Positions 1 to 41,480 of a DNA stretch of 64,000 bases are shown piece by piece. Each line of letters begins with the position of its first letter. The first letter of the stretch is position 1. A model generated the notes under the pieces. It ran no database searches and was not told the origin of the DNA. It was given only the letters and a program-made list of their open reading frames with translations. Location: assembly GCA_046563655.1 (NCBI GenBank), contig CM102289.1, forward strand, positions 1,302,001 to 1,366,000, written 5' to 3'. This DNA is from Yuukianura sp. NJ FZ-2021 (Eukaryota). The translations under genes were made by a program, and so were the position numbers.

Positions 1-391
1 AAGCCGTTTATCGTGAAAAACTTGGTGCCGATCTTCCGAGCGCGCGAGAAATTCTCGGTTCGGCTTCAATCATGCTGTCGAATGGACATTTTAGCACGAG
101 CACACCGAAACCGAACTTGCCGGACGTCATTGACGTAGGAGGACTTCATACTATTCCACCGAAGGCACTTCCCAAGGTAAGACTTAAAAAAATCAAAATT
201 TGAAAACTTTTTGGATTTCGAAAATTGATTTAGAAATTTTGACAGAATCTGGAAGATTTCATTGCCCAGGGGAGAGACGGCTTCATCTATGTCAGTTTCG
301 GAACGACAATTTCTACAGTCGACATGTCTCCGGAGAAACTCGAAATTTTTCTTTCGGTTTTTTCAAAATTGAAACAACAAATCATTTGGAA
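1..391 (+). pseudogene. Truncated UDP-glycosyltransferase copy (end of exon 1, intron 177-245, start of exon 2); 5' part lies outside the window
   Basis: Near-identical to 4856-5246 of the intact UGT. Homology stops abruptly after KQQIIW, before the UGT signature motif, and a stop follows at 397. Confidence 0.8.
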
Positions 392-469
392 TCATGAAAT
401 TGGTAAAACTGAGACATTTGATTAAACCAAACATCTAAGTTTTTGATTTGCTTTAATCAGTTTATCCAT

Positions 470-2086
470 TTATTGAACTAATTTGACAAAGCCTAAACTA
501 CGGTGTTGTCGTGACTGTGAATATCCGTGACTAATTCCAAATAAGTATGCATCTGTAAGATCCATATATTTCACCAAATCTGGATGGTGGTCGAATTCCT
601 TCAAAACGCTTTGACGCAAAAGCACGTAGTCTGCATGGTCATTTATAATTGCAGACAATACACTTTGAGCAGCCACGTCCACCGGAATCTCTTTTTGAAC
701 AACTTTGAAAATAATTAGGTTCTCAGAGTGTGCATTTCCAAAATCCTTTCTCAATCCAAGCAAGTCATTAATACTTCCAGCGAGGGAGTTCAAAATTTCC
801 AACAGTAGTTTAAACGACGGTGCTCGTAAAATGTTAGCTGGAAGTAAATTTCCCACAAAAATCCAAACAGTTTCCACCATAAGATCGGCAAATGAAGCTC
901 GTTTTCTGTAATAGCTGAACACTTCTTCAGAGTACTGGCGGTCAATAGGTCTGATTGCAGCCCACCGCGCTGTTTCCAGTACCTGGCGCAAGTATTTGCA
1001 AAATGGTGGTTTCTTTTTTTTCCCAGTCTGGGATCAGTTCTCTGTTACGCCGGTTCAGATCTACCAAAGCGCAAAATAAAGAACGAAAGTCGGAAAAGTT
1101 TTCAACTTCGGTATAAACTGTTGCATTATTTTCCAAAACGTCCATCAACTGCAACATTCCTGCGCAGAGCGTTTTGACAGGAACTCTGTTTGCTACCACT
1201 GGTTCCAGGGTTTCTTCCATTGTCCACTCCCACAAGTACCAGTAGTTGAGTAGTTTCATTTCTGGACTGTCGAGGGGTAAAAATGGGTTGAGGTACGCAG
1301 ACGCAAGCGAGCTTGTTTCAATCAATAGCTTAAAATATGTAGATTTACCAGTTGAGTCAAAAAAATTGTTGAACCAATTCTGCAAGTCGACGACCATTGG
1401 GTCCAGTTCCTGTTGAGTCAGCTTTGGACGTTTATATTTTGCATTAAGCGTGAAGTACTCACCCTTGACATGGCGTGGCCCATGTTTTGGATCCACCAAT
1501 TCACCAAAGTCAAAAACGACTTTTGGAAGAGCAACTGACTTCTCGGAAAGTGACTCCGCTAACGTAAACAAAAAAGTAACGGTGAGCAATATACCGGTTA
1601 TTAAATTTATCGAGAAAGGCTAATAATTAAAGCATTAATTTAAAAAAAATACCATTAAAAACAATCTTAGATTTTCATTCAATGCTAAACTCTAATATCA
1701 CTAAACGTATCGGTGATCCCTGAAATTTTTTGGAAGCACTCAGGCATTTATGGAAATTTTTTCCAACTGACTACATATGTGCGGAGAAGGGTGAGGTCGT
1801 TTGTTTAAATTCGTTGTTTTTACGAACTTTTTTTTGAGCTATTACATTTTTCTTCTAAAATCGAAACATGAAAACCAAGTTTACACTTGTTGAAGAATTT
1901 TGGTTTTCAAGTTTGTGTTCAGTTTAGTAGATAACGTTTCAAAGTAAATAAACCCAAAGTTGTGGAAACATTCCCAGAAAAATGAAAATAACACCGATTG
2001 TACTTCATTAATTTTGCAAATATGCAGACAAGTTTACCTTGTTCCGCTGAGTTGTCAAATGATGTAAGTGCTAACTGGGGAAACAT
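470..2086 (-). CDS. Microbial-type class I terpene synthase, copy 1 (exon 2038-2086 + exon 470-1558), with a +1 frameshift in the T8 run at 1014-1021
   Basis: Colinear with the intact paralog at 28532-29959. Carries EETLE at the DDxxD position, NSE-like NDLLGLRKD and C-terminal SRQH. Removing one base from the homopolymer joins ORFs 942-1589 and 470-991. The 49-nt first exon (MFPQLALTSFDNSAEQ) is conserved in copy 2. Confidence 0.75.
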
Positions 2087-3066
2087 TTTTAAAAAATTCC
2101 TTAAAATTGTCAAAATTCGAAAGAAGTCCTTGGGTTTCTTTGATTTTGTTCAAACAGAGATTGTAATTGTCAATTGAATTGAAATGGATCCATTTGGTGC
2201 TTGACTTTCTTTTTATATACGAGTAGTAAGTTTAATTCAACGTGTCGTGATCTTAGCTTTACATCAAAAGGGAACGTGATTGAACCCGTCAAACGGGTTC
2301 CTTCGAGTTGTTCCTACACTAAAGAAATTCCTACACTTTACGCTTTTTTTCACCTCTAAATTAATTGAAAGTTCGTGTTAATTTAAGTGCATCCGGGTTA
2401 ATTTTGCGTCAGAAAACCTGTATAAATTTGAAATCATTTGAACAAATCGCCGCTGGTTTCAAGTTATGCCCTTTATGTTTTTAGGTTTTTGCATCTGTAC
2501 GATGAGCATCGATCGACGCTCATCGAGGCCGAGGACTTTTGTGCAATGTTACATATACTGTTAGAATACTTCCGAATACTGGGAATAATCCAGTATTTTG
2601 GTTTTACCTATTTTATTACATTCCGTCCAAATTCCAAAATTGTTTCATTATTTAAAAAACAATGTATACAGTTGTTAATTTAAAAACGCACCCGACAGCC
2701 AAATTGAAATTTACAATTTGCAACGTTAAAAAGTTGAAAGAAGCTTTTTAAAAAAAATTGAAAGTTTAAAACAGGATTTGTTTCAAAATTGATTAAAAAC
2801 GGTGCGAAAATGAAGCCAGAATAATAAAAATTTTGGGTTTGATTGATTTGCAATGCAGATTGTTTGTATTTTTAATGTATAAAATTTTAGTTAAGCAGCA
2901 ATTAGTACATTCGCAGAAAAATATTGCTTAAAAGTGTTAAATGCTAAACATAAAAAGAGTCACGTGTTTAAAAATACATTTTGAAATTAAATACAAATTG
3001 AAAGATTTCTTTAAATACAATTGAAAGAAAATACACTTAAAAAGTAAGCTTAACTGAAAGTTTTTT

Positions 3067-3655
3067 TTATTTGTCTTTTGCTTGGGACAGAAATAAATCC
3101 AAGTAAAACTTGGGGTTGACTTTTCTAAAATTTCCTCCAACAATTTCTACAGTTTTTTTTTACTTGTAAAGTCACTTTTTTCATCAAACTTTTTTGATTG
3201 GCTGCTACTTGCTGTTCAGATTGTTTAAGCATTTGTAGAAACAGCCGTGCGTTGATTTCATCTTCAGACTGTGAATTACGTCCAATTGTTTTTAAGAACT
3301 TGGATTCCCATTCTTCAAAAGAAACGTGCTTGAGATTATGTTCCCGCCCAAGGAAATTTTCAAATCTAACTTCGTCTCCAACCATATGAAACACTTTGGG
3401 TGGTGATGCGCATGGCGAAGGTTTTTTACTCAACTGGACAATAGTTTCTGAAACGTCGCCATCCACAAATGGAAGTCTTACTTCAGTGCATGGGAAGCAG
3501 TTGATCTTGGCGCATGCGCATAAAAAACAGGCAATGGCGCCTGATCGGTCAACAATTTTTGTTTGCACGATGACCTCCGACCTGCCCAATTCTGTAGATG
3601 GAAGCTGCCATTCCACGGTCTGCGGCTGCCCAAACTAGTTGCTCTGAAACCCATT
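3067..3655 (-). pseudogene. Remnant of the NRPS-like thioester-reductase (R) domain C-terminus
   Basis: TKIVDRSGAIACFLCACAKINCFP...EDEINARLFLQMLK aligns with 16684-17270 and has frameshifts. Confidence 0.85.
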
Positions 3656-4215
3656 TGAAACCCAATAATGCGAAATGACGGAGGGAGTAACTATCTCAGC
3701 CCTTCGGATCAACGCAAGTTGAAAACCGCTACAAATTTTTTCGAAGCTATGCAATTTTGGAGCGGCGAATTGTTCGGAATTTATTGTACAACTTTCCTTA
3801 CATTCTTGTCCGTCGTAGTTACCAACAGCATCATGCAGTTGCAAATGTTCTAAACATGAATTTTCATATTAAATTTTAATTTAAATTTTTTTTGAAGGTC
3901 GACTTCCAAAGGTCACATAAGAGTAGATGATAGGTTGTAGTGTTTTGAAAAACAAAAACCCGAAAAGCTATTGAAAAGTAATTTTTGTGTGTATTTTTAC
4001 TTGTCGTGTCCTTCTAGGCAATTGGTTTTTGTTGTGCCTATAATTTATTTTTAGGTTTACATTCAAAAAATTTTGAGGTTTATAAAGTGCTTGAAGTTTA
4101 AAACGTTCCGGTATTGGGAACCACTGGGAAGTTAAAAAAAAAAGTAACGCACTTTGCGATAGGAAAAAGTTGTAATTGTGTTTTTGTTTTCAAAAAGTAA
4201 AGTAAAACTGAAAAA

Positions 4216-6042
4216 ATGAGTTTATTGTTCTTGGTGGTTTTAATTTGCGTAAGTTTTCCATTGAAGTGTTGCTCAAACAAAATTTTGTCGGTTGAATTTG
4301 TTTCTGACAAAAGCCATGTACTCACATATTTGCCACTTCTTGAAGCATTGGCATCAAGAGGTCACGAGGTCACACTCGTCAGCCCACTCAAAAACATGAC
4401 CAAGGGAATTCGTGAAGTGATAACAATCGACTTCAACAACATTCGAGTCCAAACTGTATTTTCAGTGAAAGAAAAAAACGAAATTCCAAATCCACTTGTC
4501 TATTACCGCAATATTATTCCACCAGCATGTCGTGACCTCTATGACCGCACTGAAATTCAAAATCTGATGAAAGAAGAATTTGACCTCGTCATTTTTCAAC
4601 CGGTTTTTAACGAATGTGCTCTTGGATTTGTTCATGTCATAATGCAGAAAAACAACGCTCCACTGATTTTGTTTTGTCCAAGGTCACCGAATAGCTTTCT
4701 CGTTGGATTTCTAGGGGGACACTATCCACCTTCATTTGTTCCAGGAATTTTTGGCGGTTTTGGCGTTGGATCGACATTTCTAAAAAGAGTTCAAAATTTT
4801 GTGATTGAAGTTTCTGTGTATTTGCTGTACAATTTTTACTTTTTACCGGTCATGGAAGCCGTTTACCGTGAAAAACTTGGTTCCGATATTCCAAGCGTGC
4901 GAGAAATTCTCGGTTCGGCTTCAATCATGCTGTCGAATGGACATTTTAGCACAAGCACGCCGAAACCGAACTTACCGGACGTCATTGACGTAGGAGGCCT
5001 TCATACCATGCCACCGAAGGCACTTCCCAAGGTAAAACTTAAAAAAATCAAAATTTGAAAACTTTTTGGATTTCGAAAATTGATTTAGAAATTTTGACAG
5101 AATCTGGAAGATTTCATTGCCCAGGGGAGAGACGGCTTCATCTATGTCAGTTTCGGAACGACAATTTCTACACTCGACATGCCTCCGGAGAAACTCGAAA
5201 TTTTTCTTTCGGTTTTTTCAAAATTGAAACAACAAATCATTTGGAAATTTGAAACTTCTGGAAAAACCGTGTTGCCTAAAAATGTGAAAGCGAGTAAATG
5301 GCTGCCACAACAGGATTTGCTTGGACATGCGCAGATCAAACTGTTTGTAACACATTGCGGCATGGGTGGCATGGAGGAATCCATTTATCATGGTGTGCCA
5401 CTCGTCGGCATTCCATTTGTTGGAGATCAGCCGCTCAATTGTCAAGAGGCTGAGAATAATGGATTTTTAGTGCAACTGAACTGGAACACTTTGACTGAAG
5501 ATGGACTCATGCGTGGCATTCAAGAAGTTTTGGGCAATCCGAAGTAAAAACTAAAAATTTTCAAAATTTCAAAATTCGAGAGGTTCCAATTTAATTTTAT
5601 AAAATGTCTAAATTTGTCCTTTTGCAGATATATGAGCAATGTGCAAGAGATTTCAGCAGTATTCAGAGACCAAATGGACAAACCGCTGGACAGAGCCGTC
5701 TGGTGGACGGAGTACGTCATCCGACACAATGGTAAATTTTTTTTTAATTTGGGTGTTGAATTTTTTTTAACAACATTTTGACAATTTTGATATTTGAAAT
5801 TTTTTATACTTGCTTTAGGAGCTCCGAAACTGCGATCTGATGCTCGAAAGCTAAACTTTTTCCAGTACCATTCCTTGGACGTGATTTTCGCTCTTGTGTT
5901 TTTTGCACTACTTTTTTCGTACTTTGTGTTCAAAACAGGAAAAATTGTTTGCTCCGCAATTTCAAAATTGTTCAAAAAAAAAGTTGAAAATAAAGCGAGA
6001 ATAATAGAATTTGAAAGTTGGAAATTTGATTACACAAAATAA
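4216..6042 (+). CDS. UDP-glucuronosyl/glucosyltransferase (exons 4216-5031, 5101-5543, 5628-5731, 5819-6042)
   Basis: Signal peptide, catalytic His in KSH, UGT signature WLPQQDLLGH...FVTHCGMGGMEESIYHGVPLVGIPFVGDQ, AVWWTEYVIRH, C-terminal TM helix and basic tail; GT-AG introns keep the frame. Confidence 0.93.
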
Positions 6043-6812
6043 TAGTTTCAAAAATTTTCAATAAATTTTGTTCACAAATCGCTTTAGAGTTACATTTTTT
6101 TAAACAACTCAGGAACACGTTTACATAACGTTGCACCCGCAGCGGATGCAGCAGTTAGCTGTATGTGCAAATTTTCGAAGATACTACATTAAAAAAAAAC
6201 AAATTAACCTTTAGTAATCGTTCAATTAATAACAACCAGCGTTTTTACCGGGCATACCAAAAGTTTGTATAAAGCCAAAAGTAGTGTCATAGGTGAAGCG
6301 ATAAGGAGAGTAGGGATCCATGAGGGGAGTATTGCACTAAATGCGAGACTTTACCATTTCCACTACATTGCTGCATTGATCTAACTCGAACAAAGCACAT
6401 TCCCTCCATTCCGTATATTTTTTTTAGTGACGCGTCGCTCTCCTTATGAGCATGTGCAAAAGTTTATACCTACTTTTGGTACACCCGATACAGTCTTGCA
6501 TATGGTTGAAGTTACCAAATTGTGAGCTGTGGCAATGAGAAGTGCTTTGGTTTTTATGTCCAGTCTTGCGTTGATATTGATTGAAATGTTCCCATTCTCC
6601 AGTCCCGCAACCGCCCAATTTCAGCACCACTCCCTTGCACAAATCGGTGAATTCGGTGGTCCGTGTCATCTTTCTCTTCTCGAAAAATGCGTTCCCCCAT
6701 GGCATTGACCACGCTGATGTCATTCCAACACACTCCGAATCCCTCAACGTTATCCAGAACTACATCACCGGAATTAACCGTGAGTGCCTACAGCAGAATT
6801 AGTCCGTCAATA

Positions 6813-6957
6813 TATCGGGTGTACCAAAAGTCCGTATAAACATTTTCTACATGAAACTCATAAAAGTGAGAAAAAAAATCCTTGCGTGAGATCAAGGAAG
6901 TGTTGAAGAAGTTGCACGGGGAGAAAAAAGGTACACGGACTTTTGGTACACCCGATA
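6813..6957. mobile_element. Small Tc1/mariner-type MITE; an extra isolated inverted end lies at ~6450-6490
   Basis: Terminal inverted repeats TATCGGGTGTACCAAAAGTCCGT / ACGGACTTTTGGTACACCCGATA; TA on the left flank. Confidence 0.6.
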
Positions 6958-7655
6958 TGTCCATTGACCACCAATCTTAATCTATTTTTTTGTGTGTTTT
7001 AAAACCTACTCGACGGTTTTGCTTTGCTACAAGAAGGACCTTTCCGTTGGGATCAGTATATCGCACCACTCCGTCGTATACCACAATCATACATTGCCCC
7101 GCTGCTCCTCACGTGGAGGGTCTAACAAGGCGGATATGATGGACTGACCTTGTGCGTCCTTGATGAGCACTACGATGGTATTTGACCGAGAACCTATTCC
7201 AAAAAAAAGTTAGACTAACTAAGTTTTGTGCTGTTCAATTCCCGCTTCGAAGGAACGAAACGGTTCGTCTCGTTTAAGTTGTGAGAATTGGAACCGTTTT
7301 CATTAGGGAAACGAAATGAAACCGGAAATATAGGTTTATTGCCAAATAGACCCTAATTTTAATTTGAAGTGTGGTAAAAGTGAGAGAAAGTTAAACTGTT
7401 AGAAAGTTAAGTTGTGCATAAATTAACATATGCAAAAATAAAAACAGCTGAGCTGAATGCTATCGATTAAGCATATTTTTAGTCTTGCTTTGCGCTTCCG
7501 TTCCGGTCTGTTCCTTTCCCGGTTTTTTATGAATCAGTTTACGTTTCTCAGGTTTGAGACCGGTTGCGGTTTTACGTGGAAACGAAACGAAAGATAATTT
7601 GAACAGCGCGAAGTCTAATTAAATCTACTTATATAAAATCGAGACCCTGTTTATC

Positions 7656-7682
7656 TGTGTGTGTGTGTGTGTGTGTGTGTGT
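7656..7682. repeat. (TG)n microsatellite
   Basis: Direct dinucleotide run. Confidence 0.95.
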
Positions 7683-7778
7683 CCTGCTACTCCTCCGAAA
7701 CTACTGCACCGATTTGGACAAATGAGGTGTCCTTTTCTTCCTAAGGTCACCCCGAAGAGCATAGGCTATGTGACATCT

Positions 7779-8740
7779 TGACCTGTGACCTTTGACCCTT
7801 GACCTAGCGCAATGACCTCACAAAATCGTACCAAACACAGGCAAGTGACATGTCGTTCGAAAGCAGAGGCCAAATGCAGTCGATTGATGTATGACACATT
7901 GACCTGTGACCTTTGACCTTTGACCTAGACCGGTGACTTGACATAGAATTAAGCCGAACATAGGAATGTGATATATCATTCGAACGGGGAGGCTGAAAGG
8001 AGTTGATAGACGTATGACACGATGATGTGTGACATTTGACCCTTGACCCAGAGCGGTGACCCCACATAGAATTAAACCAAACCCAGAAATGCAATATATC
8101 ATTCGAAAGGGGATGTCCAGTGGAGTGGATTTATGCATGACATGATGACCTGTGACTTCTAACCCTTGAATTAGCGCGGTGACCTCACAAGAAATAATCC
8201 AAGCATAGGCATCTACTTAAAAAATCGAGACCCTGTTTATCTGCGTGTCCTGCGACTCCTCTGAATTTACTGGACCGATTTGGGCAAACGAGGTGTCACT
8301 TTCTTCGCGAGATCACCCCGAAGATTACAGGCTACGTGACATCCTGACCTGTGACATTTGACCCTTGACCTAGCGCGATGACCGCACAAAATCGTACTAA
8401 ACATACCCAAGTTACATGACATTCAAAGCAGACGTCAAATGCAGTAGAATGACGTATGACACATTTACCTGTGATCTATGACCCTTGACCCAGAGCGGTG
8501 ACCTCATATAGAATTAAGCTGAACATAGGCATGTGTACGTTGTTCGAAAAAGGAGGCTCAAAGTTAAATGCAGTCGATTGATATATGAGATTGACCTGTG
8601 ACCTTTGACCTTTGATCTATGGCGATGACCCCATAAGAAGTACATACAAACATGCCTGTGATATATCATTCGAAAGAGGCGGTCAAATGGACTCGGTTGA
8701 CGTATGGCGCGTTAATTCTGTGACTTTTGGCACCAAAAAG
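7779..8740. repeat. Degenerate ~120-bp tandem array rich in TGACCT/TGACCC
   Basis: TGACCTGTGACCTTTGACC-like cores recur at ~7779, 7900, 8027, 8146, 8345, 8466 and 8592. Confidence 0.85.
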
Positions 8741-10337
8741 AATTAAGTTCCACAGTAAATTGTTGTCTCTACATGTTAAACATTAATTGGATGGACGGGT
8801 AGTTTTAAGGGATTTCCGCCTGGGCAAAGCGTAGGCCGTAGGGTAGGATAATTTTCATAAAAATAGTCCAAGCGGGTCAGCATGTGTCTCGAGTGGGTAG
8901 CGGGTTCCCATAAGTGATACGTTTTTCTATGTGTGTTCGTATACACTACCTCAAAAGCTAGTCCCGCTTTCACAAGCGGGTATCATACCTTGTAATTAAT
9001 AAAAGCTAGTTATTATTTTGAAAGTAGAACTTGCTTATGGCTTCTGGCTGGTGAAAGTAAAACTGCTCCTGCTGACCCAAAATAGCTTCTAGATGGTCCA
9101 GGGGCGTGAGTTCTACGACCGAAACGATGTGGAATGTCCACTGTTTCCGATTGGTTCCTGAGACTGGAGCCCAAGTTCTGAACCGAAGTACGCTGGAGGC
9201 ATTTCGCTCAGTGGTATTGATCCTTGAGGCCCTTTTGCGTAGCTCATTTTAAATTGAGTTTTTAGAAGTTGATCTAAAAGCAAAAGTTGTAAAAATTAGT
9301 GTAAATTTGAAATTAACTAAAAAGAGTGGTGTGAAGGTAAGGAACACCTTTGCGTATTTGTCCCACCACAAAATAATATTGAGTGGGATAAGGATTCTAG
9401 GTGAAATATGTGCATACGTGTAACCGGATGAGTATAATCATAATCAAGCAACTGATAATAACAGGTTTAATCTTCGAAATTGATTATTTTCTTACTTTTC
9501 TTTTGGCATAACTCCTAACCTAACTTCCTAGTAGTCCAATTTATGTTTAATTACGTGTGATAATAAATGTATTTTTCCTAATTTTAATTCCTTGCAAATT
9601 GCTATCAAATTTTGAAATTTATTTGTAGCCTGATGTGCAATGGTAAAAAAAATTAGGAACTCGGTAGGACTTTTTAATCAACAATACGTGTTTGTGTTAC
9701 AACCAAGCAAGCAATTACACCTAGAGGTGGTGAATGTAATGCTAAAAATTTGAAAAAAAAATTAATTAAAATTGAAAATAACCAAAACTTTTGTGTTGTT
9801 TAGATGAAATTTTTCATGAAAATGACGTTATAGGCTAGACAATAAGCATTTGTCTGCACGTAGAAAAATTTGAAAATGAATTTGAAGGACAGTATCATTT
9901 TCGTCCGTGTAAGCATTACCCAGATATTGACCAAACGTACACCGTAAATCCGGATTAGAATTTTGAAATCCTAATCTGGAGGAATCGGAAATCCGTCAAA
10001 AATCCGGATGTGGGCCGCTAATTACTTCAAATTAAAAAATAAATTAATAACAGCGAATATTACTTTAATTCTCAATGCAAGTAACAATGTATTTTACATA
10101 ACGTTAGCAAGTGATTTATCATTCAAATCATTTTAAACTATTTAACAATGTACAAATTTCGATAAAAAGCATAAAAGTAGATGCTAAAAAATATTTTGTA
10201 ATGTTTTTTAAAGCATGTTCGAATTCGTAAAACAATCAAGCGGTCTACATTTTTGTAAAATAGAGAAAACGTTTAACTTTGAAAGTTACATGCAGTTACA
10301 TTTTTGACGCCTCGCCTTTTTTCTAAGATTCAAAGTA

Positions 10338-11880
10338 GGGGAGGATGGGGGCAAGTGAATCATGGGGTCAGGGGAATCACTCGCAATAACTTTATTTAGT
10401 GCATCACTAAAATTCTGTAAAAATCAGTTATAGATGATCCCAATTGTTAACTTCTTGCGGCAAATCATAGAAACCCAATTTCATGTCGTTGTTGTCGATG
10501 AGCTTAATTTTAAAAAAATTCACAAATATTCAGCAAAAGTAAAAATTTTCCATTGACACTTGGTCGTTGATTTTACAATTGGTGACGTCTATACCGAAAC
10601 ATTAGGTAAGTGATTATTTGTATTAGACAGTTTAACGCAAACTTTGACCTTGAGGTCAAAGTATTTGTACAAGGTCAACCCACACTAAGCACTTGTTTGA
10701 AAAAAAGCGGTATGGGGTCAAGTGAATCACTCGGTTAAGGGGCAAGTGAATCACCTTCTCTTCATATTTGCAGAACGATGCCTCGAAAACGTTTAAAAAA
10801 AACTACCTGGGGGATTGAGCAGAAGGTCATGGAACTTGCTGGAGAGCAAGTTCTTAACGGGAAAAGCATCAGGAAAGTGGCAGCGCACGCTTCGTCGTTT
10901 TATTTATTTTGGCTTAACTTCACTGGAATGTGGCAAGTTGGCGTATGAAATTGCGAAAAAAAAAACAAATAAAACATCCACCAGTATGGTGATACAAATT
11001 TACAAGCGGGACGAGAATGGTATTTAGGATTCATGCGAAGACATTCAACGCTGTTAGTTTGTAAGCCAGATGCCACAAGTGTAGCTAGAGGTACCAGTTT
11101 CAACATGAATAACGTAACGACATTTTTACCCAACTTGCGGAAGTCCTGGACAAGTACAATTTTCAGCTACAATCGATTTACAACGTGGATGAGACGGGAG
11201 TTACGACTGTCGCGGATACCGTGAAAGTGATTGCCTCAGAAAACGTGAAGTTAGTTGGGGCAATGACATCAGCTGAAAGCGGCACTCTAGTCACAGTTGT
11301 ATTCGCCGCCATTGCAATTGGAAACTCGATTCTGCCAATGTTTATTTTTCTCCGGAAGAAATTTTACAATCACTTTGTGACTGGCAGTCCACTTTACAGC
11401 ATCGGAATTTCGAATGGGGCTAAATAATCTAAATAAATCTAAATAGCACGCTAAAAACACCAGAAAGAAACCTGCGACTCCAAAACGCGTAGAAAATGCC
11501 GTAAAACTGTGTCAAAATCTGACCAATCAACTTCTCTGAGGCCAAAAAGAACCAAACTTGTTTTCCGCTAATAATTCTGTTCATTTTCGTTGAGATTTTA
11601 ATAGTAATTTAACGTTTTGTAAAAACAATTAAAGTGATTCACCTGACCCCATATCCTGATTCGCCTGACCCCCACCCATGGGGGCAAGTGAATCACTTGC
11701 AGAGTTTTAAAAACATTGTTCCTGTGACCTTAGTATAGAAAGTCAAAAGGTCAAAAAATGCTAGACTTGTGGTAAAATGTTGTAGCTTATGGTTAGCGTT
11801 GCTACTTTTCCAAAAAACTTATCGGTGTTCAGTACAGAAAATTGCTAACGAAAAGTGATTCACTTGCCCCCATCCATCCC
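10338..11880 (+). mobile_element. Decayed pogo/Tigger-like (DDE_1) DNA transposon
   Basis: ~25-bp TIRs (GGGGAGGATGGGGGCAAGTGAATCA / TGATTCACTTGCCCCCATCCATCCC) with TA on both sides. Broken transposase pieces include FMRRHSTL..KPDATSVARGTSFN and NVDETGVTTV...TSAESGTLVTVV...GNSILPMFIF. GGGGCAAGTGAATCAC recurs subterminally. Confidence 0.88.
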
Positions 11881-13800: not shown

Positions 13801-14026
13801 GGATTACGAAGTCAGAATAATAAAATTTGGATTTGATTTGTCTGCAGTGCGTACATGAAAAGCATTTGTGTTTTTAATGTATAAAATCTTAACAGCATTT
13901 AGTACATTGGCAAAAGAAAATATTGCCTGAAAATCGTAAAAGCTACACATTAGTACAAATAGTCACGTGTTTAAAAATACACATTTTGAAACCACTCAAA
14001 AAGTAAGCTTAGCTGAGTTTTTTTTT

Positions 14027-14745: not shown

Positions 14746-14791
14746 TGAACGGTATATGCAAAAACAGTTTTGTTTTGATAAGCTCACTCGT

Positions 14792-14925: not shown

Positions 14926-15004
14926 AAGTAATATTTTATTTGATATACAAATAAAGAATGACAAAACATGTTATTATGCTATGCTGAAACCTGTTATGTT
15001 ATTT

Positions 15005-19600: not shown

Positions 19601-19887
19601 TTTTGGACTTGCGTACTTGTGTAAGTGTCATGGATGACTACGACGATTTTGTTAACTGAGAGTGTCGCAAGTGAACTGACAATGTACTTCAATCCTGCGG
19701 GTAAAAGTGACACGACGAATGGATTACGACTACTTCCGAGCTCCAGCGAGTGAGCAGTCGAAGTAACGATTTTGTACAACTGCTTGTAAGAGCATGTGAT
19801 TGGTCCATCCTCGACAGCAGTATTTTCTGGATGTCGGTCCAAGTTTTTCATAAAAATCTTCCATAAAGTGTCATTCGATGATTCCAT
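16684..19887 (-). CDS. NRPS-like adenylation-thiolation-reductase (A-T-R) enzyme; introns 19347-19445 and 17417-17513; apparent -1 frameshift in the A6 run at 16966-16971
   Basis: A-domain motifs FTSGSTGTPK, IYGSTE, YNTGD, GRKDEQIKVHGMRLELGEVE and SGKTDR; carrier motif FFYIGGNS; reductase motifs ITGTTGFFG, HSAAEV and GYHQSKWVSE. Both introns are GT-AG and restore the frame. Confidence 0.9.
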
Positions 19888-20814
19888 TTTGCTTAACTTT
19901 TTCACCTAAAAACGATACAATTTTACACAAAATTTAGAATATTGTTTGACGAAGTAAAAGTTTACGTAAATACTTTCGGAAAGACGAACTTACAAAGTCG
20001 CAGTTGTAAAAAGCAGGAGTTGTGTGTAGGGCGGGTGTCACAGAAGTAATGGAAAACAAGTTGAAAGACGCACTATAGGTTGTACTACTTTTGAATTTTC
20101 TTGAAATTTTCCAAAGAGGTTTTTCTAAAACTGGATTTGAAAAGAAACCTTGTTTCATTGTTATAAAAAAGTACACATGAATTCTATTTCCATTCATATC
20201 TCAAGTTCAGTTAAAGGTCAAACCTTTTTCTTCGAAGCAGCACCGAAATAAAAATGTCGACAAAAAAGTTCAACAAGTTTTTCGTTGGAACAAAAAAAAA
20301 CACCAACTCATGCCGAAACAAACGTGTGAAGCATGTTGTCATTGCAACAAAACGTCCAGCATTGGAAACAATTTTACGGTTTGAAAAAATTTTTTACAGT
20401 AATAAATCAGGGGGGAAAATGATTGCAGGGACATTTTTGGGAATCGGGACTTATTGCCTAACTTGTTAAGGAAAAACTATTACGCTGCTACAGGAACCTT
20501 GTGGCTGATTTTGGTCGTAGATCATTGTATAAATTTTATATTACTTGAACCAAATCATGAACACCGGTTTCAACGGATTGGATTGAAAGCGGAAAATAAT
20601 TCTCAAAAAAGTAAAAGAAAAGTGTCGGCATCCAAAATTTCCCATTTCGAAATTTAATTACTTGGACTGAATTACTTCTTGGATAATAATTGTTCACAAA
20701 CTAGACGGATTATTATAAAATATATTAAAAAAAATTACATAACAGAAGAAACCGCTAAAGTATTCTAACAGTATATGTAACATAGCCAGCTGTGTTTTGA
20801 TGAGATTATCTCAT

Positions 20815-20995
20815 TTAATGAATTAATTTAATACACTTCATGCCAAAGTGTCGTCGTGACTGTGCATACATATGGTTAACTCCAAATAAAAATGAATCTG
20901 TGACATGCAAATATTTGACTAGATCGGGATGATGGTCGAATTCCTCCAACATGCTTTCACGCAGAAGCAAGTAGTCTGTATGGTCATTTACAGAT
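20815..20995 (-). pseudogene. Terpene synthase C-terminal remnant
   Basis: NDHTDYLLLRESMLEEFDHHPDLVKYLHVTDSFLFGVNHMYAQSRRH matches the end of both TPS copies. Confidence 0.85.
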
Positions 20996-21009
20996 CGGTA
21001 AAGATTGGA

Positions 21010-22395: not shown

Positions 22396-23300
22396 TTAAT
22401 AATTTATTTATAAATCATACAAAAACGTTATTTCCTTCGTCTCGTACGGTAATTCGAATAGTTTAGGCTTTGTATCTAATTAATGTAAACCCTGAGGGCA
22501 ACGCTACGCCGCTTTTGGTTCATCTATTTTGTGCATTTCTTCCACTGGATATACAGCCGTGGACGAAATCTCGCAAAAGTGGATTTTTAACAACACCGGT
22601 TTTTTAAAAATAAAACCAAAAATACCTAGTTTTAGTTAAAGCCATGATTTATTTGGCTTTTCTCGGTTTAAAGTTTAAACCAACATCAAAAACTCGATAT
22701 TTCTCAGAAAATGAATCTATACTTTAGAACTATTTAATCCGTCGAAATTCCATCTACTGATTTCAGTTCCAACAGTACCTTAACAATGTGAAAAAAGCGT
22801 TAGAACAGTAATTTGGGAAAACATAAACGAGTTAGTACAAAAGAGCGAATGAATTTCATTCAAAAACAAGACTTTTCTGTTAATTCAGTATCCCCTTTTT
22901 CCCATTTACTCATGTTGGTTTAAACCTAATAAATGTGAATAAAAACCGCTCGGTTTAAATCGTGGTTTAAACCATGGTTTAGATCATGTCTCCTAAACCA
23001 AGGCCACCCTGTTTCTAATAATTAATCCGGACAGACAGATAGACATGAATAATATTATAATAACAGCGCCGCAATTACAATAATCGTAACAGCCCCACGA
23101 ACATTATAACACAGCTCGCCCAAACAGAATGACACACAGACAGACACGCGAATATCATAACATGAATCTTTTGAAAAAATTTTTGGAGATGAATTCGGTA
23201 ATTTTGTTGCCGACTCTTGTTAAATTTTGTTTACGTTTTTTCTTGGCAACGCAAGTCGTCATCGCGTTTTGAGGTACGCCATTCTTCGTCGGAGCTATAG

Positions 23301-24528
23301 AAATGTTCTCCAACTTTCATTTCAATTGGCTTCCTTGAGATCCAAAATTTTTTGGAGAATGGCGTAGAGTTGCGCAACATAAATTTACCAGCACTGCAAC
23401 ACTTGCTGGAGTTGTCACGGCAGAGAACAGCTAAACTGATTGCTTCGGTCAGGGTAAAAACAATTACTATGGTAGCCATCATGAAAAATATGAGAATGAT
23501 AATATACTGCACATTGAGTAATTTGACAAAAGTATAACAAAATACTATGAGTATTATAATTGCAGTGTACAACATAAATTGGACGACGCTTGCAAACACA
23601 TCGTTTGCAAATTTATTCATGACTTGGTGACTTGCATACATAGAACTCTGCTCGTCCAGCATTGTCTCCTTTTCCATACTTTCACTACCCAAAAAGCAAA
23701 TTTTGTTTGATATTTTTTTTTTCAAAATTTAAAAATGAAAACGAATATATTGTTACCTCAATTTTTGAAGCCACAGACGGGTTGCATTTGTGTATATTAG
23801 GGCACAGTAACAAAAGAGGAGCACAGCATATGCTCCATTGACATATGAAAATGACAAGAGTACCGCAAACACTGAACGTACAATGTTAACAATAAGTCTG
23901 CTAGGCTCTACTCCAAAACAATATAGCAGTATTGTTTGGATTATAAAATAATATGCTTGACTAATTTCGTTGTCCATTAGGACAAAAAATATTATAGCTG
24001 CCGGTATGAAAAGTGGTCGGCCATAAATGAATAAATTGAAGATTGATTTTATCACAACTTCATATCCATCCTTTGCCTTCGAATTTAGTGAAACGTTGTA
24101 AGATTTGACTAAAAGACAAAAAATGACTCTAAAAAATTTTATACTGATTGGAATTTTGAATGATGAAACTCACGCAGTGCATTATAGAATCTTATGAATG
24201 TTGAAAGTACTGATGAAATTTGATGTCTGAATTTAAAATGCCAAATTTGCATTCCACACAACAATATGGCGAGAGTAATTAATCCAATCATAAACACAAA
24301 CTCCGCTTTTTCATGTCGTAGAAGTACAGCAACAGTAGTGAACATTAGAGCACCGATGAAATTCATTGCAAGACTCGCAGCCGTAACTACCTTGGAAATA
24401 ATTTTGTTCTTACTGTTAATCACTATTAACTCTTTGCCTTGCTTTACAATTTTAAAATTGTACGCCTTCCACTTGTAACCATCCTCCAATAGTTTTAGTG
24501 TATATTTCCATGTCGTTTTTGATAGCAT
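23301..24528 (-). pseudogene. Chemoreceptor-like multi-TM gene, copy A (inverted, lacks the conserved last TM segment)
   Basis: Three exons homologous to copies B-F. Homology breaks after MKVGEHF, so the family C-terminus VLDTKAYLLTIYGDIVLQNV is absent. Confidence 0.75.
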
Positions 24529-26019
24529 TTTCAACTGCGTTCAATATGCTGCAATTGAAATGCTTTGCTATTAGCGGTATTTTGGTATATCGACACGTCG
24601 ATTCCTAAGATGATTGTACTTATTTAACTATCACCTAGAGTAGTATGTACTATAAAACCCAGCTCCTAAAATGAAACTACTTCAATGGTATTGCTCATAA
24701 GCAGGTTATATCATAATTCCAAAGTCAATTTCCTGTTATTTGACATTATCAAATTTTGACGAAGTAGGAATTCAGCGAAATGAAAAGTTTAGCATAAAAT
24801 ATGAAACTGGAAATTAAATTTTGTGTTTCCTGTTTTGTGTTTAGGGTTTGGACTACGTTTTAATTCCGTCTGGACGAGTTCTGGATGCGGGAAGTTTGTT
24901 GGTAGTTTTGGTTTCCATGGAAACAAATGTAATTGGCAAGACTTTCCGTGTTTGCATTGAAAAATTTACGGAGTTCTTCTTTAAACCCAAGGTAAATAGA
25001 ATACTTATAGGTACGGTCCTTTAAAATTGTTTTTTCAAAACCGAGTTGCTATGGGATTTTTTCACTCCGAGTTCACTCATCTACAGTGTTGTTCAACATT
25101 TTCATCATTTTAGTCTCAATACTTTCGCCGCAAACTTAAAAATAGCTTAAAAACTCGGATGAACCTGTATTTTCACTCGGAGTGACGTCACTCTGAGTGA
25201 AATTGTAAACAAATAAAGAATCGGTTTTGGTCGCTAAGGCATTTTTGCCGCCCCCTGCTTTAAACCGAACTTTTTCATTTAGTTTTAAACCCCAATATTT
25301 ATAACCTTTAAAAAAAAATTATTAAAAAAAAACTTCATGTTCATGTTTTATCGTCATTCAATTCTATCCGAGACCAACAGCTTTTGTGTATATTGCGTGA
25401 CCCCTTAGTGACCTCTGCACGGGTCAAAGGTCAACTCCTTAATTCTACCGTGCATAACACCATAGTGGGTTATAATTCATAATAATGTGGTTGTGTGACT
25501 AGCCTTTTGCGAATGCAGCGCCTTCTTTCGCTACTTAAGTATACCGGTTGACAACATTTTTTTAAGTGCTTCCTTTTAAATACTTTTAATTGGTTTTTAC
25601 ACTCCGGCATCAAATATTTTGCATTTGAAAATTTAAATACTCGGACTAATTTTTTATACCTAACACTTGAACAAAGAAAAGATTCACAAAAAATATTTAA
25701 AAAAAAATGCTTGTGTGTCCTTGGCACACGCACACTTTCATCTGTCAAGTGAGAATGTGGAATGACTAGATATTTTCATAAGAGTCCTTCAATATGTACA
25801 AATATCAATTCACATTGTGGTTTGTGGAGATAAAGCAAAAAATAACCTTGCAATTGAATTTTTGTCATTGTCCAAAACCACTTCAACTGGACACAGGACC
25901 GCTTGGCCTACAAATCAGCTTTGCCAGTAACATTTTGAAACTTTGTGTTTCATCTTGCAAGATTTTAGACGAAAAGGGATTACAAATAAACCAAATTTCA
26001 TTTTTGGTGTATTTTTAAA

Positions 26020-27870
26020 ATGTTTGTAAACCTAAGATCAAGTAGAGTCGAAACTTTCACTTTTTTGATTTTCTTCAGTTTGGCCATTTTGCCCTGCTTG
26101 TGCTCCTCAAAGAAGATTTTGGTAGTGGAATTCCTTGGAACGAAGAGTCACGTGCTGACGTATCTTCCTTTAGTAGAAGAATTGTCCAGGAGAGGTCACG
26201 AGGTCACGTTGGTCACTCCACTCAAAAACATGGCCAAGGCTGGAATTCGTGAAATAACGACGTTAGACTTTGCACAGCTCAGCAAATCCTTGAACTTAAA
26301 CATCTTTGAAATGAAAGAAAAAAATGAAGATTTGAATCCGTTTACGCTGTTAACTGATTTTGCTCCCACTGGGTGTCGTGAGCTCTACGACCGCGCTGAT
26401 ATTCAAAAATTGATGACAGAAGAATTTGATTTAGTAATTTTGCAACCAATGTTCAACGACTGTGCACTCGGTTTCATCCATTTTATAATGCAAAGGAATA
26501 ACGCACCGCTGATTTTGTTTACACCGACGAGTGCACCGAGTTTTGTAGTTGGCTACATCGGAGGCCATCATCCACCGTCCTTCGTTCCGGGAGTTTTTAC
26601 GGGATTTCGAGATGAAATGACACTTTGGGAGAGAATTCAAAATTTAGTAGCGGAAATTTTCGTTTATACGATGTACAATTTTTATTATCTGCCTGTTATG
26701 GAAGCCGTTTATTACGAAAAAGTTGGCTCGGATCTTCCAAATGCTCGGGAAATTTTTAGCTCCGCTTCTCTCATACTCTCAAATGGACATTTTAGCATTA
26801 GCAAACCTAAACCAAATTTACCTAACGTCATTGACGTAGGAGGACTCCATTCTTTGCCAGCCAAACCACTACCTAAGGTATGAATTCAAAATTCAAAATT
26901 CAAAAAAAAATATTTTTTTTTGAAATTTAAAAATTTGAATTTTGGTAGGATTTGGAAGATTTCATCTCCCAAGGAAAACATGGCTTCATTTACGTCAGTT
27001 TCGGAACAGGAATTCGCACGGACGACATGCCACCAGAAAAGCTGGAAATGTTTTTACGCGTTTTTTCAAAATTGAAGCAACAAATTGTTTGGAAATTTGA
27101 AACTTCCAAAACAACAAAGTTGCCTGAAAATGTTAGGTCGTTTAAGTGGCTGCCACAACAGGATTTGCTTGGACATGCGCAGATCAAACTGTTTGTGACA
27201 CACTGTGGATTGGGTGGAATGGAGGAATCCATTTATCACGGTGTGCCACTCGTTGGCGTTCCATTTTATGGTGATCAGCCACTCAATTGCAAAGAGGCAG
27301 CAAATCACGGTTATTTGGTTCCACTCGACTGGAATACTTTGACAGAAGAAGGTTTTCAAAATGCAATTGTCGAAGTACTAGAAAATCCAACGTTAGAACA
27401 AATCACAACGCAAAAGTTTTAATTTTCTCATTTTTTTCTTTCAAAATTTAAAAAAAATCGGCCTATTTCAAAATTTGGTTTTTCTTTGAAGGTACCGTGA
27501 TAACATTCATAATCTGTCAGCAGTATTCAAAGACCAAATTGACAAACCATTGGACAGAGCCGTTTGGTGGACCGAATATGTCATTCGTCACAAAGGTATT
27601 AGTTTTTATCTTATTTTTATAATATTATATATTTGTTTTAATTAAGTAAACATCAAACTAAATAATTTTTTAACTGATTTTATAGGTGCTCCAAAGTTAC
27701 GTTCTGCTGGTCGGAAGCTAAATTTTGCTCAGTATCATTCCTTGGACGTTATAGCACTACTTCTGTTTGCGATTGTTGCAGTTTTATACATTTTGTTCAA
27801 AATCATCAAACTACTCTTCAAAACAGTATTGAAGTTGATAGGATTCGAGAAAAAAAGGAAAGCGGAGTAG
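26020..27870 (+). CDS. UDP-glycosyltransferase (exons 26020-26877, 26949-27391, 27492-27595, 27686-27870)
   Basis: Signal peptide, KSH, UGT signature WLPQQDLLGH...GVPFYGDQ, TM helix and a KKRKAE* ER-retrieval-type tail; same intron positions as the first UGT. Confidence 0.94.
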
Positions 27871-28334
27871 AATTTTTAAAAACAAAGGAAATTTCCATAT
27901 TTGACTTCTGTTGAACAAGTCTCAACGTTTTAGAAATTTACTACTGAAAGATTTAGAATTAAGAAAAGCCGCCAGAAGACATATTTTACATCAACCCAGG
28001 CAAGTAGCTTTAAAAATTAAATAGGTTTTTATGGAAACATAAAATAGCCAGGTGCTAAAGATAATTCGATTTCGAATTCGAATATTTTGGAATTCGAGAA
28101 TATTGCAGCAGAAATGCTAGAATGATTTTTATCAACATTAATTATTAAAATAAACTCAAAATTAATTCGTTTAATTTTTTTTTGGTTCAAAAGCTTGTTT
28201 TTCAGTAATTAGTTTTTGCGCATGAGGACGAAGCATTGCTAACGTTTCTGAAAAATTCCATCAGGCGAAAACGAATTCAAAACTCATCCTACACTTCATA
28301 AATTTTTGAGTGTTTTGTAATTGAAAAAACATCT

Positions 28335-28400
28335 CTTACTTTTCTCCGTTGAGTAGTCAAATGATGTAGGCGTTAACACAGGACGATTTTTTTGAAACTG
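28335..28400 (-). pseudogene. Orphan copy of the terpene synthase first exon
   Basis: Reverse complement ..TSFDYSTEK|GTAAG resembles TPS exon 1 (TTFDYSPEQ|GTAAAG) but has no ATG. Confidence 0.45.
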
Positions 28401-28531
28401 TTTAAAATTTTGCGTTAATGTTTGAATGAAAGTCGTTGATTTATTTTTTTTCAACTTCAATGAACAAACACAAGAGATATGCCTAAGCCCAAGCTAGCAA
28501 GTTTTCCATTGGTTTGAATAAGTTTAATCAT

Positions 28532-29959
28532 CTATTCAATTAATTTGACAAAACCTAGACTACCGTGCCGACGTGACTGTGCATACCCCAGACTGGTTCC
28601 ATATATATATGAATCTGTGACATCCAAATATTTGACTAAATCTGGATGATGATCGAATTCCTCCAAAATGCTTTGACGCAGAAGCAAGTAGTCTGCATGG
28701 TCATTTTGAATTGTAGACAACACGCTTTGAGCAGCCACGTCCACTGGAATCCCTTTTTCAAAAACTTTGAAAATAATCAGGTTGTCAAAATGTGCATTTT
28801 CAAAATCCTTTTTCAATCCAAGCAAATCATTGATATTTGCAGCCACGGAGTTCAAAAGATCCAAAAGTCGTTTAAACGAAGGCGCTCTCAGGATTTCAGC
28901 CGGAAGTAAATTTCCCACCAAAATCCAAACAGTTTCCACCGCCAGATCGGAGAATGTCATTAGTTTTCTGTAATACTGGAACATTTCTTGAGAATACTGG
29001 CCGTCAATTGGTCTAACTGCTGTCCACCGCGTTGCTTCCAGTAATTGTCGCAAGTATTTGCAAAATGGTTGTTTGGTTTTCTCCCAGTCGGGAATCAGTT
29101 CTCGGCTACGGCGGTTCAGATCCACCAAGGCGGTAAACAAATCGCGAAAATTTAAAAAGCTTTCAACTTCGGTGTACTCGGTTTCATTATTTTCTAAAAC
29201 GTCCATCAACTGCATCATTCCTGATTTGAGGGTTTTGACAGGAACTCTGTTTACTACGGCTGATTCCAACGTATCGTCTAGAATCCACAGCCAGAAGTAC
29301 CAGTAGTTGAGTAGTTTCATTTGTGGACTGTCGAGGGGTACAAATGGGTTGACGTAGGCAGATCCAATTGAGCTTGCTTCAACCAAGTGGTCCAAAAATG
29401 GAGATTGGCCAGTTGAATCAAAAAATGAGTTGAACCATTTCTGCACGTCGGTCTTCATTAAGTTCAGTTCTGCCGGAGTCAGAGTTGGACGTTTTTGTTT
29501 TGGATTAAGTGAGAAGTACTCGCCCTTGACACATCGAAACCCGTGGTTTGGATCCAGCAATTCACCAAAGTCATAAACAACTTTTGGAAGAGCAACTGAC
29601 TTCTCTGAAGGTGATCCAGCTATGTTACAAAAAAGTTACGTTAATTAAATTTAGTAGTTAATAAATTTATGGAGAAAATACTTATATTTTCAATGTTAAA
29701 CTCTAAAATCACAAAATGGTATTGGTAAACTCTGTGATGTCTGGGAAGCCCTTGGACGTTAATTCGAAATTTGTTAGATTTGTAGTTTTTTGTAGATAAT
29801 GTTTTAACAGGAACTTGAAAAAAACTGGCTGAAGAATTCCTGTCAAGAAAGAACGGAAATAATACCCGCCATTAGTATATTTTGATTTGCAATTGTGCAG
29901 ATAACTTTACCTTGCTCAGGTGAGTAGTCAAATGTTGTAAGTGCTAAGTCTTGGATCAT
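28532..29959 (-). CDS. Microbial-type class I terpene synthase, copy 2, intact (exon 29911-29959 + exon 28532-29619)
   Basis: Asp-rich ILDDTLE, effector Arg in YYRKL, NSE-like INDLLGLKKD, NLI, and C-terminal GYAQSRRH at the WxxxxxRY position. A phase-1 intron at 29620-29910 is inferred from conservation with copy 1. Confidence 0.82.
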
Positions 29960-30551
29960 TTTTGAAAAATGCTTTCGAATTTGGGTTCGGAAGAAAACGT
30001 CAGATTTGTTTGATTTTTTTCCAAGAAGATATTGACATTCACTATAAAGTTGACAGGCAATTGATTTGCCTGGGATTTGACTTTCTTTTAAATATATTCG
30101 TTGTGACGGCAGTTTAGATTATAACAAGTGCAAAGTGTTTGTACAAGTCAACCTACTTCTTCTGCGTTTAAAGACCTTCTTCTGCACTGAAGACCATTGA
30201 ATAAAAAAACGTGTTTGAAAAAAAAATGTAACAAAAAATATTTAAAAAACAACATCTGTGTGACCTTGGCACACGAACAGTTTCATTTCCAAAGTGAGAT
30301 TGTGGAGTGAATAGATATTTTTATAAGAATCTTTGAACATGTACAAATACAAATTCACAGTGTTGCTTGTGAAGATAAAGCAAAAAAAATGGCCTTGCAA
30401 TTTCATTTTTGTCCTTGTCCAAAACCACTTCAATTGGACACTGGACAGTTTGGCCTATAAATCCGCCTTGTCAGTAACATTTTGAAACTTCGGATTTCAT
30501 GTTGTAACTTTTTAGAATTCAACATAACCCCAAATTTCATTTTTTAAAAAA

Positions 30552-31030
30552 ATGTTTAAAAACTTTAGACCGAGTGGAGTAAAAAGTTTTATTTTATCGT
30601 TTTTTATAATTTTGGCGCTGTTGCCATGCTTGTGCTCCTCAAAGAATATTTTGGTAGTGGAATTCCTAGGGACAAAGAGTCATGTGCTGACTTATCTTCC
30701 ACTTGTAGAAGAACTGTCCAGGAGAGGTCACGAGGTCACGTTGGCCACTCCACTCAAAAACATGGCCAAGGCGGGAGTTCGTGAAATAACGACGTTAGAC
30801 TTTGCACAGCTCAGTAAATCCTTGAACTTAAACATCTTTGAAATGAAAGAAAAAAATGAAGATTTGAATCCGTTTACACTTTTAACTGATTTTGCTCCCG
30901 CCGGGTGTCGTGAGCTCTACGACCGCCAAAATATCCAAAAACTGATGACAGAAGAATTTGATTTAGTAATTTTGCAACCAATGTTCAACGACTGTGCACT
31001 GGGTTTCATCCATTTTATTATGCAAAGGAA
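30552..31030 (+). pseudogene. Truncated UGT: 5' part of exon 1 only
   Basis: Near-identical to the UGT at 26020 up to IMQR. The sequence then jumps to a copy of that gene's 3' flank (31125-31190 resembles 27975-28050). Confidence 0.85.
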
Positions 31031-41473: not shown

Positions 41474-41480
41474 GGGGTCG

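Follow-up and report, generated by a model that had tools for sequence, protein, structure and literature searches.

A probable mosaic of terpene synthase, NRPS-like reductase and UDP-glycosyltransferase genes in a springtail genome assembly

A 64,000-nucleotide stretch of the Yuukianura sp. NJ FZ-2021 assembly, positions 1302001-1366000 of contig C7 (G000:C7) and referred to here as the window, carries in its first 31 kb interleaved genes and gene fragments of three enzyme families: microbial-type terpene synthases (TPS), a nonribosomal peptide synthetase (NRPS)-like reductase with adenylation, carrier and reductase domains (A-T-R), and host-type UDP-glycosyltransferases (UGT). Blocks of these genes were duplicated and then decayed, leaving one TPS, one A-T-R, two UGTs and one lectin intact, these coming from different copies; the lectin has taken the place of a TPS body, and the intact TPS faces duplicated upstream DNA of one UGT. 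We read the locus as a birth-and-death gene-family mosaic, whose likely working enzymes probably act on separate substrates and not in one pathway, and give this reading a probability of roughly 55%. An initial annotation had proposed a biosynthetic gene cluster (BGC) duplicated as a unit; its observation is partly confirmed and its interpretation partly supported.

The source genome comprises 98.7 Mb in 22 contigs; C-numbers denote its contigs and L-numbers other stretches of it. Gene families were assigned by Pfam, which confirmed the TPS (Terpene_syn_C_2), A-T-R (AMP-binding, PP-binding and NAD_binding_4), UGT (UDPGT) and lectin families, the B_lectin match lying below its cut-off. The 54 small open reading frames (ORFs) in the gaps between genes were also scanned and gave one weak sub-threshold match and no further gene. 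Read evidence was available as four contig sets (X1-X4) for positions 400-20300; the four runs are not independent, since they represent one sample from one study and possibly the source of the assembly itself.

Gene order and duplication history

The left part of the locus begins with UGT-a (1-399, + strand), a 3'-truncated pseudogene whose ATG lies 645 nt upstream of the window, followed by the frameshifted TPS1 (470-2086, -), a UGT 3'-end remnant (2781-2832, +; weak, 77% over 53 nt to 5960-6012, E 4e-4) tail-to-tail with A-T-R remnant 1 (3030-3860, -; C-terminal part of the reductase domain only), the intact UGT-b (4216-6042, +), and repeats. The latter include a degenerate tandem repeat at 7623-8729 (strand not assigned) and, at 10.7-11.4 kb, what we take to be a DNA-transposase remnant, although it has no Pfam match. 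In the middle lie the UGT-c remnant (13249-13829, +), of UGT-b type with a small exon-1 piece and the 3' end, and A-T-R remnant 2 (14027-14745, -), a frameshifted last exon with 91% DNA identity to the intact copy, homology starting at 14745. This remnant is fused to the TPS-alpha 3' tail (14748-14919, -; stop at 14792), after which come the intact lectin (15005-15397, -), TPS-type upstream DNA (15536-16377, -), the intact A-T-R (16684-19887, -) and the TPS-beta 3' tail with its 3' flank (20446-20990, -; tail 20793-20990, stop 20815). The right end holds a receptor-like membrane gene, the intact UGT-d (26020-27870, +), a remnant of another TPS 5' region (28311-28454, -), the intact TPS2 (28532-29959, -) and the truncated UGT-e (30218-31030, +).

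The same junction of a UGT tail with an A-T-R tail is found in two copies (2781-3657 and 13785-14612), showing that block duplication is real. The A-T-R/TPS junction is likewise present twice (13856-14745 corresponds to 16517-17404 at 91%, and 14748-14909 to 20767-20956). As both junctions recur, an ancestral order of UGT> <A-T-R <TPS can be reconstructed. Duplication as a unit, as initially annotated, holds for these paired junctions, but not for the module as a whole: the window contains no complete three-gene copy, each TPS adjoining an A-T-R copy is broken, and both TPS pieces upstream of A-T-R copies are tails of about 200 nt or less. A TPS remnant had also been noted directly upstream of the A-T-R gene and of its remnant; the positions are right, but the two cases represent one duplication followed by an internal deletion of about 3.4 kb and are not independent. 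Although the coordinates checked are correct (20815, 19887, 14792, 14745, 470, 27870 and 28532), a tail-to-tail UGT/TPS pair at 391/470 had to be discarded. No gene ends at position 391; UGT-a breaks off within exon 2, where it abuts the TPS1 3' flank, and X2 and X4 contigs bridge this junction (joint 5246->400).

Synonymous distances (dS) were obtained with a simple counting method on short alignments. Among TPS genes they were 0.42 for TPS1/TPS2, 0.38 for TPS-beta/TPS2 and 0.35-0.38 for TPS2 against three dispersed paralogs; against the intact A-T-R they were 0.29-0.49 for remnant 1 and 0.11-0.36 for remnant 2; and for the UGT pairs a/b, e/d and b/d they were 0.19, 0.31 and 1.34. The UGT-b/d distance far exceeds that of TPS1/TPS2, indicating that UGT-d with TPS2 is not a copy of UGT-a with TPS1, and that UGT-d predates the block. 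The ratio of nonsynonymous to synonymous distance (dN/dS) was 0.16-0.46 in every comparison of an intact gene with a paralog. The intact A-T-R, UGT-d and TPS2 span 13.3 kb, and UGT-b and the A-T-R are 10.6 kb apart; genes for non-homologous enzymes are physically linked, as in a BGC.

A UGT/A-T-R/TPS block was duplicated locally several times, most copies then decaying, with unequal crossing-over between repeats and insertion of mobile TPS copies as the probable driver. The TPS-beta flank ends at a dispersed repeat of about 55 nt (20446-20502; at least 37 other places), which is also the end of the TPS 3' flank common to two paralogs; this hints that TPS copies were moved by way of repeats. 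A piece of 110 nt occurs both in the TPS-beta flank and upstream of UGT-d. No convincing promoter motif common to TPS, A-T-R and UGT was found.

The bulb-type (GNA-like) lectin is an intact, secreted protein of 130 aa with three QxDxNxxxY motifs; X1 record 5 covers 15085-15546 with 0 differences. It had been counted as a member of the duplicated unit, but it is single-copy in the window, and its only two paralogs are 5.3-5.4 Mb away. In front of it, three blocks match, in the same order and at 67-74%, DNA found upstream of TPS paralogs, and a TATA-like word stands at 15607. Since the lectin is flanked by TPS upstream DNA on one side and by a TPS tail on the other, it has replaced the body of a TPS copy. 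Its position behind TPS-type upstream DNA is likely a case of promoter capture; a contig of X1, a run apparently derived from RNA, extends to 15546.

Intact enzymes and their probable transcription

TPS2 is a microbial-type class I enzyme of 378 aa encoded in two exons, with its stop at 28532. Its terpene synthase domain scored 48 bits against PF19086 (cut-off 23.7), Atlas placed it at 0.96 to terpene synthase clusters, and PDB terpene synthases matched at E ~1e-6. The motifs DDTLE, NDLLGLKKD and SRRH are variants of DDxxD, the NSE triad and RY, the canonical letters being absent; related proteins, one of them from Folsomia, have comparable variants, and TPS2 alone among the five members of its clade retains DD in the first motif. 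The clade includes three Folsomia candida proteins (SH-aLRT 99, quick tree). A word-index search for relatives of TPS2 was empty, and a full HMMER scan recovered them; among named proteins, those of Folsomia candida are closest to the TPS, and the source genome contains dozens of microbial-type TPS genes. From knowledge of the family, TPS2 would ionise a prenyl diphosphate to yield a terpene or terpene alcohol.

Published work reports 277 springtail TPS genes in 21 of 26 genomes (PMC13638087), with geraniol, linalool, farnesol and nerolidol among the products (PMC11665903). TPS2 resembles these canonical enzymes (PMC11665903, PMC13638087) in being a single-domain class I protein of PF19086, but differs from them in its motifs (DDxxE, NDxxGxxxD, and RH for RY). 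A word search of the main texts of both papers found no mention of glycosyltransferases or of TPS clustering with tailoring genes.

TPS1 (exon 1 2086-2038, exon 2 1558-470, stop codon at 470) is thrown out of frame by one nucleotide in a stretch of A near 1015. An assembly error at this site was ruled out, because X1 record 1 and X2 record 9 cross it with 0 gaps. This, together with a first metal motif that reads EETLE, makes TPS1 a likely pseudogene.

About 6 kb before the window begins there is one more TPS, which belongs to a different clade (L004:3291-4307, +). Its motifs are DDYLDD, NDVLGLNKD and RY, and its first exon is only partly modelled. It groups with three TPSs on C7 (138k, 1081k and 1098k), all of which have a glycosyltransferase no more than about 22 kb away.

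The A-T-R gene starts at the ATG at 19887 and has introns at 19445-19347 and 17513-17417. The assembly is one base short at 16965; the extra base is present in all four runs at full depth and restores a frame of about 1,000 aa. A pseudogene is thereby ruled out for the allele in the runs, and the gap in the assembly fits an assembly error or a minority allele alike. The three domains lie in one frame, with the carrier serine (GGNS), the Rossmann motif TGTTGFFG, YxxxK and the core adenylation motifs kept. In alignment, FIPS stands opposite FDGS/FDIS of LgrA, so that Ile replaces the Asp that binds the alpha-amino group, at the position we take to be PheA 235; the Asp is absent from all six aligned family members, which have Ile, Val or Leu instead. 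Scored as an unspliced ORF, the protein fell below the TIGR03443 and TIGR01733 cut-offs, which with the missing Asp sets it apart from alpha-amino-acid NRPS and Lys2 enzymes, and below all NCBIfam cut-offs, including those for carboxyl_red, Lys2 and MxcG. It lacks a condensation domain that could join two partners, and is not an ATRR protein, because the gene stops after one reductase domain.

From these features, the most probable activity of the A-T-R is that of a carboxylic acid reductase. By analogy with its family, it would activate a carboxylic acid other than an alpha-amino acid, tether it to the carrier serine and, at the expense of NADPH, convert it to an aldehyde or alcohol. Most adenylation domains without PheA D235 take aryl, keto or hydroxy acids (10.1101/559534). 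With the NRPS-like carboxylic acid reductases and fungal ATRR of that source, the window A-T-R has in common the A-T-R order, GGNS, TGTTGFFG, YxxxK and the loss of D235. Unlike fungal ATRR, a glycine betaine reductase (10.1101/559534), it has no second reductase domain, and unlike the NRPS-like carboxylic acid reductases it belongs to an intron-bearing animal family. The closest A-T-R paralog (55-59% identity; C2:1.487-1.498 Mb; L061, L019) has an FAD oxidase after it and then, in tandem, three glycosyltransferases that belong to another class; its locus is a candidate micro-cluster tighter than the window.

UGT-b and UGT-d are intact four-exon genes of host type. Both encode a UDPGT domain, an N-terminal hydrophobic leader, the signature motif and a C-terminal hydrophobic stretch, as expected of arthropod UGTs anchored in the endoplasmic reticulum (ER); leader and membrane stretch were judged by eye. 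All four runs have two extra A at 5973, giving UGT-b a shorter C-terminal tail. UGT-d (529 aa, stop at 27870) is closest to named Orchesella and Folsomia UGTs (40-48% over exon 1). UGT-e repeats, at 85%, the DNA upstream of UGT-d together with the first half of its exon 1, and stands head-to-head with TPS2, the start codons 593 nt apart. Going by their family, the UGTs would be ER-anchored and add sugars to lipophilic alcohols that the animal makes itself or takes up with its food; the product of a TPS and that of an A-T-R could each serve a UGT independently.

A search of sequencing runs listed no RNA run for the locus, and X1 carries the automatic label 'DNA?', but its depth is 0 at all five listed intronic sites where other runs have depth. 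Its record 8 ends at 19446, the final base before the GT donor, and record 7 ends at 17512, with 146 unplaced bases that would reach 17269 and overlap record 6 by exactly 30 nt. From the empty introns, the ends at splice sites and the 30-nt overlap, we infer that X1 is RNA-derived and spliced, the splice joints themselves not being among the joints displayed. If so, A-T-R, UGT-b, lectin and TPS1 would be transcribed in one sample. The X1 contigs carry no expression level or tissue, and TPS2 and UGT-d lie outside the read-covered positions; the A-T-R remnants have little or no X1 cover, which is not evidence of silence.

Cover at 400-3700 and 14.3-15.7 kb is low in X2 and X4 and nearly absent in X3, and X3 record 17 departs from the window at 3664, where UGT-a/UGT-b homology starts. 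This hints at haplotypes that lack the two blocks, although missing cover is no proof and no displayed joint bridges either. A simple UGT-a/b chimera is unsupported, UGT-a matching at only 3 of 14 tested variant letters. The assembly is 1-2 bases shorter than the read contigs in homopolymers at 5552, 5736, 5973, 16676 and 16965, so other apparent frameshifts in the genome, such as that of the TPS at C7:1.608 Mb, may not hold up against reads.

Linkage of the three families and alternative readings

The linkage seen in the window is not shared by the paralogs and metagenome relatives compared. The flanks of the three TPS paralogs nearest to TPS2, taken to at least 16 kb, contain neither A-T-R nor UGT genes, and none of the four A-T-R paralogs has a TPS in its 40-kb stretch: one adjoins the three glycosyltransferases and oxidase described above, two have P450s and one a riboflavin gene set. 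Of 79 metagenome loci, 76 were generic NRPS matches at 26-33% identity; the three true relatives, from one metagenome, have no TPS or UGT in flanks of 0-5 kb and adjoin a GH47 mannosidase and a ligand-gated channel. Searches by tblastn with three P450 queries and one each for DAO, BBE and FMO, from -40 kb to 64 kb (104 kb), found none of these oxidases. Oxidative genes do neighbour other TPS and A-T-R genes of this genome, namely a BBE-like oxidase, P450s, an FMO, a haem peroxidase and a carotenoid oxygenase (L005, L021-L022, L027, L033, L037, L039).

Proximity was assessed genome-wide by permutation, with positions rounded to kb, loci merged within 50 kb and eight large contigs. Family counts are lower bounds, since 86 of 106 UGT, 150 of 304 trypsin, 84 of 241 esterase and 92 of 544 P450 candidates were scored and 21 trypsin matches are unlisted. 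UGT loci near TPS loci numbered 2/29 at 10 kb (p 0.08) and 6/29 at 60 kb (pool p 0.085). Among the control families, trypsins were within 60 kb of a TPS at 9 of 72 loci (expected 2.9, p 0.002) and carboxylesterases within 30 kb at 4 of 48 (expected 1.2, p 0.045), while P450s were within 30 kb at 4 of 59 (expected 1.6, p 0.08). An A-T-R lies near a TPS at 1 of 5 loci.

Several results weigh against the mosaic reading. Five of 29 UGT loci lie within 30 kb of a TPS locus (expected 0.96, p 0.0025 under uniform placement; expected 1.7, p 0.008 against the control-locus pool; both uncorrected), and without the window 4 of 28 do (p 0.01 uniform, 0.048 pool, uncorrected). An A-T-R is within 10 kb of a glycosyltransferase at 2 of 5 loci (p 0.0015), one being the selected window and the other having neighbours of an unrelated class (about 30% identity), and for 4 of the 5 A-T-R genes the nearest UGT, oxidase or P450 is no further than about 12 kb away. 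The TPS of the second clade is 5 kb from UGT-a, and the spliced-looking X1 covers A-T-R, UGT-b, lectin and TPS1 together. Interleaving beyond chance thus finds modest uncorrected backing in UGT-TPS proximity, but this is lost under strict correction for about 45 tests, which no proximity signal survived, so that the signal is suggestive at most.

The mosaic reading is favoured because the intact genes come from different copies and no three-gene copy is complete, because TPS2 is as close to dispersed paralogs as to TPS1 and neither paralogs nor relatives show the link, and because non-enzymes (the lectin, receptor-like membrane genes and an EF-hand array) are equally interleaved. The enrichment of control families near TPS loci and the empty oxidase search point the same way. 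What remains of the annotated cluster is microbial-type TPS and A-T-R genes among UGTs in an animal genome, evolving by birth-and-death with block duplications, the A-T-R being intact in the reads and apparently spliced; a conserved three-enzyme module is not borne out.

A possible, if doubtful, alternative is a loose cluster of functional enzyme pairs, in which UGT-d would act on a TPS2 terpene alcohol, or UGT-b on an A-T-R-derived alcohol, or both; the glycosides would store defence or signal volatiles, and selection would keep the linkage and the shared upstream DNA. The uncorrected UGT-TPS proximity, the second A-T-R beside glycosyltransferases and an FAD oxidase, the head-to-head placement of TPS2 with a copy of the UGT-d upstream region, the DD kept by TPS2 and the dN/dS values are all consistent with such pairs, as is the fact that the springtail TPS alcohols listed above can all be glycosylated (PMC11665903). 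The link is read from gene positions, however, with TPS2 and UGT-d outside the read-covered stretch, and the enrichment meets the objections already given: failed correction, partly enriched controls, and nearest TPS paralogs without a UGT neighbour. A further reading, which we consider unlikely, is a young springtail cluster in assembly, in which a TPS and a non-amino-acid reductase, both of microbial type, were recruited beside host ER glycosyltransferases so that defence alcohols are made and stored as glycosides. Shuffled promoters would have changed the regulation, with the UGT-d promoter copy opposite TPS2 and a mannose-type lectin co-induced with the chemical defence behind a TPS promoter.

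A single three-enzyme pathway, as initially proposed, appears improbable. In it, the TPS product would be oxidised to a terpenoid acid by an unlinked P450 and passed to the A-T-R and then a UGT, or two branches would be joined in a hybrid molecule. The reconstructed ancestral order and an adenylation domain that leaves a terpenoid acid possible are in its favour, as are known animal clusters with a TPS or A-T-R core (PMC12685057, PMC11869996). The A-T-R could take a terpene only after oxidation to the acid, and the failure to find an oxidase in the 104 kb counts against the pathway, together with the broken TPS copies, the missing condensation domain and the rarity of TPS/A-T-R adjacency. Least probable by far, and largely refuted, is an assembly artefact or microbial contamination, which the homopolymer indels and the microbial type of TPS and A-T-R might suggest; TPS, A-T-R and UGT have GT-AG introns, the copies are 70-96% identical and not identical, contigs bridge the UGT-a/TPS1 junction, and the locus lies on a 10.2-Mb contig with animal genes, its nearest named TPS and UGT relatives being springtail proteins.

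Known systems and neighbouring genes

Mollusc bur-ox, with FmtATR (PMC11869996), is likewise an animal monomodular NRPS with a terminal reductase beside candidate tailoring genes. FmtATR has a formylation domain and activates tyrosine, whereas the window A-T-R has no Fmt domain, no Asp235 and other neighbours; gene order at bur-ox is conserved across Mytilus species and two steps were shown biochemically (PMC11869996), while the paralogs and relatives compared here showed no conserved linkage. Octocoral terpene cyclase clusters (cembrene B / briarane; PMC12685057) similarly place an animal TPS beside candidate tailoring enzymes, but are conserved and include oxidative enzymes. Two precedents involve different enzymes: the beta-lactam cluster (PMC10531068) shows that springtails can carry biosynthetic genes side by side, and the sponge oro 'gene bundle' (PMC12833800) is a loose grouping among unrelated genes; the latter was defined by conservation in 6 of 6 producer species and by assays. 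The literature searched, which largely excluded subscription papers and supplements, contained no report of a TPS, A-T-R and UGT locus in an animal or of this A-T-R family in springtails, and the family and the lectin promoter capture appear to be undescribed.

The membrane gene at 23234-24540 (-) is multi-pass, has no Pfam match and is an inverted member of a receptor-like array; its resemblance to gustatory receptors is a lead only. The array itself, of seven or eight multi-pass genes, occupies 31852-58530 of the window and is interrupted by a Copia element (34450-41865) with identical 385-nt terminal repeats; a Bel/Pao element (45021-51547) in it has repeats 98% identical, and a Ty3/gypsy gag-like ORF lies near 62.4 kb. 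Upstream of the window are an 847-aa ORF without a Pfam match (L004:4553-7093, -), which we take to encode an ionotropic-receptor-like protein, and an EF-hand gene array (L001-L003); EF-hand arrays also lie beside the A-T-R paralogs at C3:1.38 and C3:2.54 Mb. The compact riboflavin-synthesis set at C3:2.55 Mb (L031:6506-9782, L032:960-2867), whose distance from an A-T-R paralog is 8-15 kb, comprises RibD, lumazine-binding RibE, RibH and a RibB-RibA-RibH fusion; a literature search on it turned up only Wolbachia papers. Elsewhere in the genome, repeated adenylation domains occur in open frames of 12,659 and 5,877 aa (C7:5.55-5.58 Mb; C3:6.08 Mb), and there are many carrier-reductase ends of about 600 aa belonging to genes like those of polyketide and fatty acid synthases (PKS/FAS).

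Springtail TPSs were described only recently, and the enzymes downstream of them are absent from the literature searched. The locus offers directly testable candidates in TPS2, the two UGTs and the intact acid reductase. If they are not coupled, it cautions that block duplication in fast-evolving regions can mimic a repeated biosynthetic module. If any enzyme pair is coupled, the locus would represent, for arthropods, a cluster that combines core enzymes of microbial type with tailoring enzymes of the host.

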